Shown here piece by piece: positions 47,200-49,053 of a stretch of 64,000 bases of DNA. Location of the stretch: assembly GCF_054482525.1 (NCBI RefSeq), contig NZ_CM137006.1. One strand, written 5' to 3'. The notes beneath the pieces were generated by a model. It was not told the DNA's origin. It did not search any database and saw only the letters and a list, made by a program, of their open reading frames with translations. Made by a program: the position numbers and the translations under genes. Each line of letters opens with the position of its first letter. Positions within the stretch are counted from its first letter, which is position 1.

Positions 47200-49053
47200 A
47201 TGAAAATGACTTTGCCGTTTAAACCCCATGTGCTGGCGCTAATTTGCAGTGCCGGGCTTTGTGCCGCCTCTACCGGGCTATATATAAAAAGCCGCACAGT
47301 GGAAGCGCCTGTGGAAGCGCAATCGACACAACTGGCTGTGTCTGACGCTGCCGCGGTTACGCTTCCTGCAACGGTTTCCGCGCCTCCCGTAACACCCGCC
47401 GTCGTCAAATCCGCATTCAACACTGCACAAATAGATCAATGGGTTGCGCCTGTCGCGCTGTACCCCGACGCTCTGCTTTCACAAGTGTTAATGGCATCAA
47501 CCTATCCGGCAAACGTTGCGCAAGCAGTACAATGGTCGCACGATAACCCACTTAAACAAGGCGATGCTGCTATTCAGGCGGTATCTGACCAGCCGTGGGA
47601 CGCCAGCGTTAAATCACTGGTGGCCTTTCCACAATTGATGGCGTTGATGGGCGAAAACCCGCAATGGGTGCAAAACCTGGGCGATGCTTTTCTGGCGCAG
47701 CCGCAGGACGTGATGGACTCGGTACAGCGATTGCGGCAACTGGCGCAACAAACCGGTTCGCTGAAGTCATCAACCGAACAGAAAGTTATTACCACAACGA
47801 AGAAAGCTGTACCGGTAAAACAGACAGTCACGGCTCCCGTCGTACCATCCAATACCGTTTCAACTGCCAACCCTGTCATTACTGAGCCTGCAACAACCGT
47901 CATTTCCATTGAGCCCACCAATCCTGATGTGGTCTATATTCCCAACTACAACCCAACCGTGGTTTACGGGAACTGGGCCAATACCGCTTATCCGCCAGTT
48001 TATCTGCCGCCGCCAGCCGGAGAACCGTTTGTTGACAGCTTTGTGCGCGGATTCGGCTATAGCATGGGCGTTGCTACCACATACGCACTATTCAGCAGCA
48101 TCGACTGGGACGACGACGATCATGACCATCATCATCATGACGATGATGATTATCATCACCACGATGGCGGTCATCGTGACGGTAATGACTGGCAACACAA
48201 CGGCGACAACATCAATATCGACGTCAACAATTTCAACCGTATCACCGGTGAGCATCTTACTGATAAGAATATGGCATGGCGGCACAATCCAAACTACCGT
48301 AATGGTGTGCCCTATCATGATCAGGATATGGCAAAGCGGTTTCATCAAACCGATGTCAACGGCGGAATGAGCGCCACGCAGCTACCTGCTCCAACACGCG
48401 ACAGCCAGCGTCAGGCGGCAGCAAGTCAGTTTCAGCAACGAACACACAGCGCACCAGTCATTACACGAGATACCCAACGTCAGGCTGCGGCACAGCGATT
48501 TAATGAAGCGGAACATTATGGGAGCTATGACGACTTCCGCGAGTTCAGCCGTCGCCAACCACTTACCCAGCAACAAAAGGACGCCGCTCGTCAGCGTTAT
48601 CAGTCGGCCTCTCCTGAGCAGCGCCAGGCAGTCCGCGAGAAAATGCAGACTAACCCGCAGATCCAGCAGCGAAGAGAGGCAGCGCGTGAGCGTATTCAGT
48701 CCGCCTCGCCTGAGCAGCGCCAGGCGGTTCGCGAGAAAATGCAGACTAACCCGCAGAACCAGCAGCGAAGAGAGGCAGCGCGTGAGCGTATTCAGTCTGC
48801 AACTCCCGAACAGCGCCAGGTGTTTAAGGAAAAAGTACAGCAGCGCCCACTGAACCAACAGCAACGTGATAACGCCCGCCAGCGTATACAATCGGCATCA
48901 CCTGAACAACGTCAGGTTTTTCGGGAGAAAGTTCAGGAGAGCCGCCCACAACGTCTAAACGACAGTAACCATACTGCCAGGCTGAATAACGAGCAACGGT
49001 CAGCGATACGGGAACGGTTGTCTGAGCGCGGAGCAAGGCGACTGGAAAGGTAA
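47200..49053 (+). CDS. yacH: Uncharacterized repeat-rich protein YacH
   Basis: 617 aa; signal-like N-terminus, His/Asp-rich tract and 32-aa tandem repeats (QSASPEQRQAVREKMQTNPQ...). Confidence 0.8.
   Translation: MKMTLPFKPHVLALICSAGLCAASTGLYIKSRTVEAPVEAQSTQLAVSDAAAVTLPATVSAPPVTPAVVKSAFNTAQIDQWVAPVALYPDALLSQVLMASTYPANVAQAVQWSHDNPLKQGDAAIQAVSDQPWDASVKSLVAFPQLMALMGENPQWVQNLGDAFLAQPQDVMDSVQRLRQLAQQTGSLKSSTEQKVITTTKKAVPVKQTVTAPVVPSNTVSTANPVITEPATTVISIEPTNPDVVYIPNYNPTVVYGNWANTAYPPVYLPPPAGEPFVDSFVRGFGYSMGVATTYALFSSIDWDDDDHDHHHHDDDDYHHHDGGHRDGNDWQHNGDNINIDVNNFNRITGEHLTDKNMAWRHNPNYRNGVPYHDQDMAKRFHQTDVNGGMSATQLPAPTRDSQRQAAASQFQQRTHSAPVITRDTQRQAAAQRFNEAEHYGSYDDFREFSRRQPLTQQQKDAARQRYQSASPEQRQAVREKMQTNPQIQQRREAARERIQSASPEQRQAVREKMQTNPQNQQRREAARERIQSATPEQRQVFKEKVQQRPLNQQQRDNARQRIQSASPEQRQVFREKVQESRPQRLNDSNHTARLNNEQRSAIRERLSERGARRLER
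48601..48888 (+). repeat. 96-bp (32-aa) tandem repeats within yacH
   Basis: Units 48601-48696 and 48697-48792 are near-identical, the third (48793-48888) is diverged, and a fourth is partial. Confidence 0.8.

Follow-up and report, generated by a model that had tools for sequence, protein, structure and literature searches.

We find that YacH of Escherichia coli carries two low-complexity modules whose lengths change between strains while the reading frame is kept, i.e., a His/Asp-rich tract within the folded core and an array of 32-aa (amino acid) repeats in the basic C-terminal tail. Our preferred reading, to which we assign a probability of roughly 60%, is that YacH is an exported envelope protein of the DUF3300 family with two such in-frame length-plastic modules, an orphan that has lost its family's usual partner, and that it has a role in envelope stress and cationic-peptide susceptibility. 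The gene was studied within a 64,000-nt stretch of contig NZ_CM137006.1 (RefSeq assembly GCF_054482525.1), called the window in the following, where the yacH coding sequence covers positions 47200-49053 on the plus strand (617 aa plus stop; based on the list of open reading frames (ORFs), Pfam and a genome match).

This ORF has no internal stop and is a 100% match to the annotated yacH (DUF3300 domain-containing protein) of E. coli PCN033. The Pfam profile DUF3300 (PF11737) scores 261.7 bits (cut-off 25, E=6.7e-78) over aa 75-333, covering profile positions 2-227 of 227. It is the sole match of a Pfam scan, and none of the NCBIfam models matched. Given the PCN033 match and the DUF3300 domain, the ORF is therefore the annotated, uncharacterised K-12 gene yacH, which is listed within the uncharacterised y-ome genes (PMC12133099). 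That is, the gene is already known, and its length variation is a modest curiosity in an annotated gene, not a new kind of system.

The 32-aa repeat array and its copy number

The array of the window consists of four directly adjoining units on the plus strand. Unit 1 (type A, QSASPEQRQAVREKMQTNPQIQQRREAARERI; 48601-48696) is recovered by Tandem Repeats Finder, motif and profile alike. Unit 2 (type A; 48697-48792) shows 94.8% DNA identity to unit 1, i.e., the two differ at 5/96 nt and 1/32 aa. Unit 3 (type B, QSATPEQRQVFKEKVQQRPLNQQQRDNARQRI; 48793-48888) matches units 1-2 at about 64% of DNA positions, and the degenerate unit 4 (type C, QSASPEQRQVFREKVQESRPQRLNDSNHTARL; 48889-48984) reaches 47-54% DNA identity to the other units. 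Tandem Repeats Finder reports a period of 96 with 2.4-2.5 copies (scores 373 and 264). The motif QSA[ST]PEQRQ starts at 48601, 48697, 48793 and 48889, i.e., with a spacing of exactly 96 nt, and it is this exact recurrence that makes us count four units instead of three. The unit profile scores 87-117 at the four sites vs. a 99.9th percentile of 29.6 in composition-matched shuffles; extra degenerate units flanking the four were searched for and none exceeded the composition-matched null. The original prediction had listed "at least three" 96-bp repeats (48601-48888) with a common 32-aa consensus. Array and period stand, while the fourth unit, which extends the array to 48984, was missed; the consensus fits units 1 and 2 but not units 3 and 4.

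We counted the units in 60 genomes, taken at even steps down the ranking of 5,425 genomes and phylogenetically non-independent: 31/60 (~52%) have four units (gene span about 1854 bp), 27/60 (45%) have three (1746-1782 bp, among them spans of 1758 bp), one has two (O121 RM8352, 553 aa) and one carries an E. fergusonii-type allele. In addition, five units are present in a 648-aa allele, and three of these share one protein sequence. Repeat number, which had been proposed for comparison across strains, is thus not fixed, with 2, 3, 4 or 5 units found in E. coli. When units are classed as A, a (hybrid), B and C, the array types seen are AABC, ABC, BC, AaC, AAaC and aBC. It is units of type A that come and go from strain to strain, and unit 3 (B) is swapped for a hybrid A-like unit in some alleles.

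Array turnover is seen in four alleles that are at most 1% divergent outside the array. They are of types BC, ABC, ABC and AABC, i.e., with 2, 3 and 4 units. The near-identity of the first two units, which holds at the DNA level as given above, had been taken to suggest recent expansion or ongoing length variation, and this allele group bears out the latter. Furthermore, the two A units of strain EC20 are only one base apart. Given 2, 3 and 4 units within one group and A units differing by a single nucleotide, we conclude that array change is recurrent and recent and involves unit exchange or homogenisation. As mechanism, we infer either unequal recombination or slippage, acting on the nearly identical type-A units of 96 bp, by which the array would gain, lose and homogenise its units. 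E. fergusonii likewise shows a change of unit number, with units of 34 aa (618 vs. 584 aa).

The array is not the sole site of in-frame change. Further events are a 45-aa duplication of the region upstream of the array (middle region; 662-aa alleles) and a 17-aa duplication. Nearly all yacH length changes are multiples of 3 nt, such that length is altered without switching the gene off. Frameshifts are rare and inactivating (a 1-bp insertion outside the repeats in one strain, an 8-bp tract deletion in Salmonella). We therefore rejected yacH as a candidate phase-variable contingency locus. By contrast, it is a variable-number tandem repeat (VNTR), i.e., its copy number differs among closely related genomes. 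It resembles the in-frame VNTRs of bacterial envelope and surface proteins in a unit length that is a multiple of three, in near-identical adjacent units, in copy-number change among close strains and in unit homogenisation. It differs from VNTR surface proteins in that it shows neither on/off phase variation nor any sign of diversifying selection.

What the units may look like is suggested by an AlphaFold2 (AF2) model of YacH, which was computed from 125 sequences and has a mean predicted local distance difference test (pLDDT) score of 74.9. Here, each unit is modelled as two helices (pLDDT ~80), i.e., each 32-aa unit would form a helix-turn-helix hairpin. With its period of 32 aa (E. fergusonii: 34) and predicted pairs of helices, the array is compatible in geometry with TPR-like repeats; no TPR, SEL1 or related repeat-family profile matches YacH. 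Another likeness is with Spy/CpxP/ZraP and DUF3106 proteins: the S/T-P-E-Q-R-Q-x-x-R-E-K stretch, with which an amphipathic helix begins, is similar to motifs of the LTPEQ type, these proteins are all-helical and basic like the YacH repeats, and yacH expression is CpxR-dependent according to PMC9600279. Membership in Spy/CpxP/ZraP finds no support, with neither a Pfam LTXXQ or Metal_resist match nor a Spy-like fold, and DUF3106 (PF11304) scores 18.0 bits, below its cut-off of 24.3 (E=0.004). No SPEQR units were found outside Escherichia among the DUF3300 homologues examined, and judged by this sequence comparison the basic tail of the family takes the form of 32-aa units in Escherichia specifically. 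Independently, a 169-aa open frame runs antisense through the array (48382-48891, minus strand) and looks like a shadow ORF.

The His/Asp tract

The other module is the His/Asp-rich loop DWDDDDHDHHHHDDDDYHHHDGGHRDGNDW (aa 302-331; 48103-48192, plus strand) with 9 His, 13 Asp/Glu and a net charge of -12. A tract of this kind had been predicted at about 48100-48190, which agrees with the exact span. Between its two Trp, 22/27 residues are Asp or His, far above chance, and the underlying DNA is made of runs of GAY and CAY codons. AF2 places the tract as a loop (pLDDT <50) between the core strands 299-301 and 338-341.

A set of 179 non-redundant proteins from Escherichia and Shigella contains about 40 versions of the tract, 19-35 residues long, which differ in the length of the His run (3 to 7) and in duplications, e.g., of DHDHHHHD or DNDDYHH. 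Strain EC20 has a 13-aa tract deletion that leaves 14 residues. Length would shift by slipped-strand mispairing in the GAY/CAY codon runs. Despite these changes, the tract is found in every Escherichia allele compared, and the fergusonii-type allele (synonymous divergence (dS) of ~2 relative to the window) retains it as DDDHHDHHHHDDDDHHNHNDDY using different codons. The conservation of the tract, which the original prediction had named as a check, is thus confirmed, though the tract is hypervariable in length, which that prediction had not noted.

The family alignment (125 members) offers an origin. The loop following the nearly invariant Trp303 usually comprises 4 residues (HHGD, HRHH, HHHH, HGGD), and His makes up 19% of the family's loop residues vs. 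1.6% elsewhere. In YacH, Scandinavium, Rahnella and one further close relative, the loop is enlarged to 16-37 Asp/His-rich residues, and an independent Asp/His loop expansion is also seen in a few distant DUF3300 members. From the alignment, the tract is an expansion of the family's 4-residue His-bearing turn; that is, the 14-35 residues found in Escherichia would represent an enterobacterial expansion that forms a flexible acidic loop on the folded core.

Metal binding by the tract is plausible given its composition and the His that the family keeps at this turn. As functional reading we prefer that the loop captures cations or metals, because of the conserved His-bearing turn, the independent expansions at the same site and an analogy to ZnuA, a periplasmic zinc-binding protein with a flexible His-rich loop. 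In both YacH and ZnuA, a disordered loop that is rich in Asp and His and variable in length interrupts a folded domain, which is periplasmic in ZnuA and probably so in YacH; some homologues have this loop and others do not. The YacH tract may capture divalent cations much as the His-rich loop of ZnuA does. The two differ in that YacH is related to ZnuA-type solute-binding proteins neither in sequence nor in fold and that its metal binding is predicted.

Family context, partner loss and selection

DUF3300 is a large family (9,546 representative clusters counted at 50% identity, E<=1e-3, with YacH aa 66-400 as query) found mostly in free-living Proteobacteria. Most members share one order of parts: behind a signal peptide come the helical subdomain, a linker and the beta subdomain, and the protein closes with a basic tail rich in Gln, Arg and Gly that ends in Arg. 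YacH follows this order, with a probable signal peptide, and shares the W-H-x-P-x-H-R-G-V-P-Y motif, the conserved Trp/Tyr/Gln/Arg residues and a basic low-complexity tail. The positions W133, Q176, R179, A182 and L188 are invariant across 125 DUF3300 sequences and present in YacH, which also has the conserved family residues D90, T101, Y102, D134, S136, Y246, Y250, Y256, W259, W303 and H362; R404 in the middle region is nearly invariant in the family. The closest relative is from Scandinavium (67% identity). YacH departs from the family at both modules: the 4-residue turn after Trp303 has become about 30 His/Asp residues, and the tail, which is Gly/Arg/Gln-rich disorder in other members, consists of ordered 32-aa PEQR hairpin units in Escherichia.

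A second departure concerns the neighbourhood. In 6/7 homologue loci that reach past the gene end, a DUF2950 gene lies directly downstream of the DUF3300 gene, and in Scandinavium the pair adjoins acnB and yacL, i.e., it occupies the same position as yacH. Rhizobial genomics describes DUF3300 and DUF2950 as universally co-localised, equipped with signal peptides and symbiosis-induced, with no characterised member (PMC4653623). E. coli YacH differs from these pairs in having no DUF2950 neighbour. The Scandinavium DUF2950 gene found no blastn match in 5,426 E. coli genomes, while the Scandinavium yacH orthologue as positive control matched 5,425 of them at about 65% identity. Likewise, a DUF2950 profile found nothing in the six frames of the window. 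Neither Escherichia nor Salmonella appears among the best 120 DUF2950 proteins, whose sources are Enterobacter, Klebsiella, Citrobacter, Leclercia, Raoultella and relatives. E. coli has therefore lost the DUF2950 partner, a loss that the original prediction had not noted, and its YacH is an orphan DUF3300 protein.

Published expression data relate the orphan to envelope stress. Conditions that activate CpxR also activate yacH, protamine represses it, and a yacH deletion mutant survives protamine better than the wild type (PMC9600279); an earlier report, as cited in PMC9600279, has cecropin A repressing yacH. Expression is strongly down in a rob mutant (PMC7537768) and up after treatment with a cathelicidin-derived peptide in UTI89 (PMC6737244), and the yacH promoter responds to ampicillin (PMC8865558). 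Taken together, the dependence on CpxR and Rob, the responses to cationic peptides and ampicillin and the protamine phenotype would place YacH in envelope stress. In the window, the promoter must lie within the divergent acnB-yacH intergenic region (46846-47199), which holds a weak CpxR-like element (GTAAA-N6-GTTAA, 47047-47062). A marbox upstream of yacH was considered and is not convincing (one match with 3 mismatches vs. 0.67 expected by chance). A sigma-70 scan of the upstream region returned nothing on the yacH strand.

With regard to retention, yacH is present in 5,425/5,426 complete E. coli genomes, with at least 80% query coverage in 5,369. Mean pairwise nonsynonymous divergence (dN) is 0.031 and dS is 0.21, i.e., a dN/dS ratio of 0.15, compared to 0.007 for acnB and about 0 for lpdA. 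Resolved by region, the ratio is 0.05 in the helical subdomain of the core, 0.09-0.13 in its beta parts, 0.13 in the repeats and 0.14 in the middle region, while it rises to 0.35 in the tract (few sites) and to 0.39-0.54 in two linkers. The low values of core and repeats (0.05-0.13) imply purifying selection. Positive selection on yacH was rejected, since the overall ratio is ~0.15 and no region exceeds 0.54.

These data bear on the main rival explanation, namely that YacH is a decaying relic with little or no function after the loss of DUF2950, such that tract and repeat polymorphism is neutral churn under relaxed constraint. The missing partner itself fits, as do a dN/dS well above that of acnB and lpdA, the better survival of the deletion mutant in protamine (PMC9600279) and the abundance of in-frame indels, including a 42-aa deletion in the helical domain of strain NCTC10444. 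The same holds for inactivated alleles: one of the sampled alleles fetched and checked is annotated as frameshifted, and in S. Typhimurium an 8-bp tract deletion frameshifts yacH and sets LT2, where the gene is intact, apart from UK-1, 14028s, D23580 and SL1344, where it is a pseudogene. On the other hand, a relic would hardly be kept in all but one of the 5,426 genomes with only a single checked sampled allele annotated as frameshifted, nor show purifying selection in both core and repeats. Tract composition is furthermore kept across saturated synonymous divergence, and transcription is CpxR- and Rob-regulated and stress-responsive. We thus consider decay unlikely, while it stays the strongest competitor of a functional envelope protein.

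One allele class stands apart. E. coli AST85 (NZ_AP043644.1) carries a yacH allele that is 99% identical to E. fergusonii YacH (equivalent window 46966-49063) and has 68% protein identity to the window allele (dS ~2). The AST85 flanks, i.e., acnB and lpdA/aceF, are still 93-100% identical to E. coli, and the divergence is therefore confined to yacH and its promoter region. The identity band of this allele comprises 9/5,425 genomes. This points to either an inter-species replacement or an ancient allele class at one gene.

Predicted anatomy, export and remaining alternatives

In overview, YacH consists of a signal-like N-terminus, a confidently modelled core (eight-helix subdomain plus a small Trp/Tyr/His-rich beta-sheet) and a strongly basic tail, a description with good support; all parts are given for the plus strand. 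The N-terminal segment (aa 1-24; 47200-47271) has Lys2 and Lys8 followed by the hydrophobic VLALICSAGLCAAS, and AF2 models a helix at 9-31. It is followed by linker 1 (aa 25-70; 47272-47409), which is Ala/Pro/Thr/Val-rich, predicted disordered (pLDDT 47-50) and has a dN/dS of 0.54. The DUF3300 helical subdomain (aa 71-200; 47410-47799) is modelled with eight helices (pLDDT 95-98; dN/dS 0.05). The variable linker 2 (aa 201-231; 47800-47892; pLDDT 65-80; dN/dS 0.39) differs strongly among alleles.

Part 1 of the beta subdomain (aa 232-301; 47893-48102; pLDDT 93-95 for aa 230-270) carries IEPxxPxVVYIPxYNPxVVYGxW, YPPVY and a Gly-rich strand up to the nearly invariant Trp303, with AF2 strands at 232-239, 248-250, 285-287 and 299-301. 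Behind the tract, part 2 (aa 332-385; 48193-48354; pLDDT 83-95; dN/dS 0.13) contributes an NINIDVNNFN strand and the WRHNPNYRNGVPY motif, where W360, H362 and R367 are each conserved in 86% and Y372 in 80% of homologues. The small beta-sheet is modelled from aa 194-201, 232-250, 285-301 and 338-359 (pLDDT 83-95). The middle region (aa 386-455; 48355-48564) has two RD(S/T)QRQAAA helices (400-415 and 423-437), and the protein closes after the array with the basic end NNEQRSAIRERLSERGARRLER plus stop codon (48985-49053), as seen from the sequence; family tails likewise end in basic residues. Overall, YacH is a charge dipole, with an isoelectric point (pI) of 5.0 for aa 25-385, where the tract adds a net charge of -12, and of 11.5 for aa 386-617. 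Neither a PDB sequence search with YacH nor a structure comparison of the AF2 core against the PDB found a relative.

Within the helical subdomain, we observed an in-frame 42-aa deletion in E. coli NCTC10444 (window about 47560-47690) that lies between two GDA motifs. The invariant Trp133 goes with it, yet the annotation lists an intact gene (575 aa).

Concerning export, a hydrophobic N-terminus is shared by YacH and 113/143 Met-initiated homologues, with an A-x-A-like site at the end of the family consensus. The segment is probably a Sec signal peptide and YacH probably exported, such that the secretion named in the original prediction is plausible. A lipoprotein was rejected, since no lipobox precedes Cys16 or Cys21; one homologue does have a lipobox.

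An alternative that touches this point is an uncleaved inner-membrane anchor, with the basic tail lying on the membrane surface (e.g., on anionic lipids) and the tract acting as a pH or charge switch instead of a metal site. It draws on the hydrophobic stretch V11-I29, whose about 19 residues are modelled within one 23-residue helix, on the charge dipole including the tract's -12, and on one database source that names YacH a putative membrane protein. Still, the signal peptide of most family members is short and of the classical kind with an A-x-A site, and a lipobox is seen in at least one of them. Furthermore, a second transmembrane helix at aa 280-300 was rejected: this part is Gly-rich and hydrophobic in many homologues, and membrane-helix-like in some, but AF2 models it as core beta-strands (pLDDT 71-87). 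We judge an anchored YacH to be quite unlikely, i.e., behind the relic explanation.

Least likely of all is a surface-exposed or released YacH whose repeats are an antigenic or phage-interaction module, with copy changes evading immunity or phage: an extracellular location is predicted in a table of PMC9600279 and other papers speak of an outer membrane protein, 3-unit and 4-unit alleles are both frequent, and yacH is far more diverged than its flanks, including an E. fergusonii-type allele imported into an E. coli-like locus, but Pfam, NCBIfam and AF2 give no beta-barrel, autotransporter or known secretion-system signal, the repeats (dN/dS 0.13) give no hint of diversifying selection, the published locations are computed and contradict each other, and a basic tail is general to a family of mostly free-living Proteobacteria.

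Several points weigh against the exported, cation-capturing envelope protein that we prefer. Partner loss, frameshifted alleles and the pseudogenes in most S. Typhimurium show that yacH is dispensable in some backgrounds. Export is a prediction from the sequence, the length of V11-I29 would suffice for an anchor in the membrane, and papers place YacH variously as extracellular, in the outer membrane or in the membrane. A literature search for links between yacH and metals, including metal-responsive expression, found none in the library covered, and Pfam, PDB sequence and structure searches gave no homology to a known metal-binding family. At family position 366, 63% of homologues have His whereas YacH has Tyr, arguing against a metal site, and a loop rich in Asp might just as well serve as a pH switch or be a tolerated spacer. 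Finally, the repeat helices were modelled with almost no homologous sequence over the region, and the unit counts come from systematic samples of genomes that are phylogenetically non-independent.

The locus is ordered acnB (44248-46845, minus strand), yacH, lpdA (from 49124, minus strand, convergent to yacH) and aceF. Opposite acnB, an antisense 828-aa open frame (44215-46701) looks like a further shadow ORF. The yacH-lpdA spacer (49054-49123) varies, with 70 bp here and 241 bp in the loci of two other strains. Rfam gives sub-threshold matches only, in the yacH-lpdA terminator region; its AgrB match (49063-49133, minus strand; 28.8 bits vs. a gathering score of 40, E=0.039) is probably just the terminator hairpin. 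An insertion of IS621 (IS110-like; IS, insertion sequence) sits at this spacer in WP2-W18-ESBL-08, and an IS200C transposase pseudogene adjoins yacH in eco-241; IS positions near yacH in the compared loci are L006:5633-6613 and L024:2276-2455. The aceF-lpdA spacer (50549-50872) occurs in two lengths, about 324 bp (the window, K-12 and part of the strains) and about 207 bp (others). The two forms differ by an indel of roughly 117 bp, and the genes on both sides are highly conserved.

For practical work, tract and 96-bp array are indel hot spots and can thus lead variant calling, the calling of pseudogenes and short-read assembly astray at yacH. For the biology, yacH is a K-12 gene without assigned function in a very large family, with a confidently modelled core that has no relative among solved structures. 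It comes with experimental handles, namely natural alleles with 2-5 units, tracts of 14-35 residues, a conserved His-bearing turn as candidate binding site and a DUF3300 protein that runs without its DUF2950 partner in E. coli. A further-reaching proposal, which we regard as very unlikely at present, is that YacH is a tunable periplasmic binder of cations or cationic peptides whose 3-/4-unit alleles (each near 50% in the species) and many tract lengths are kept by selection, not drift. If true, acidic loop and basic tail would govern the response of the envelope to metals and to antimicrobial peptides of the host, and the DUF3300 family would gain its first functional handle, in a model organism without the DUF2950 partner.

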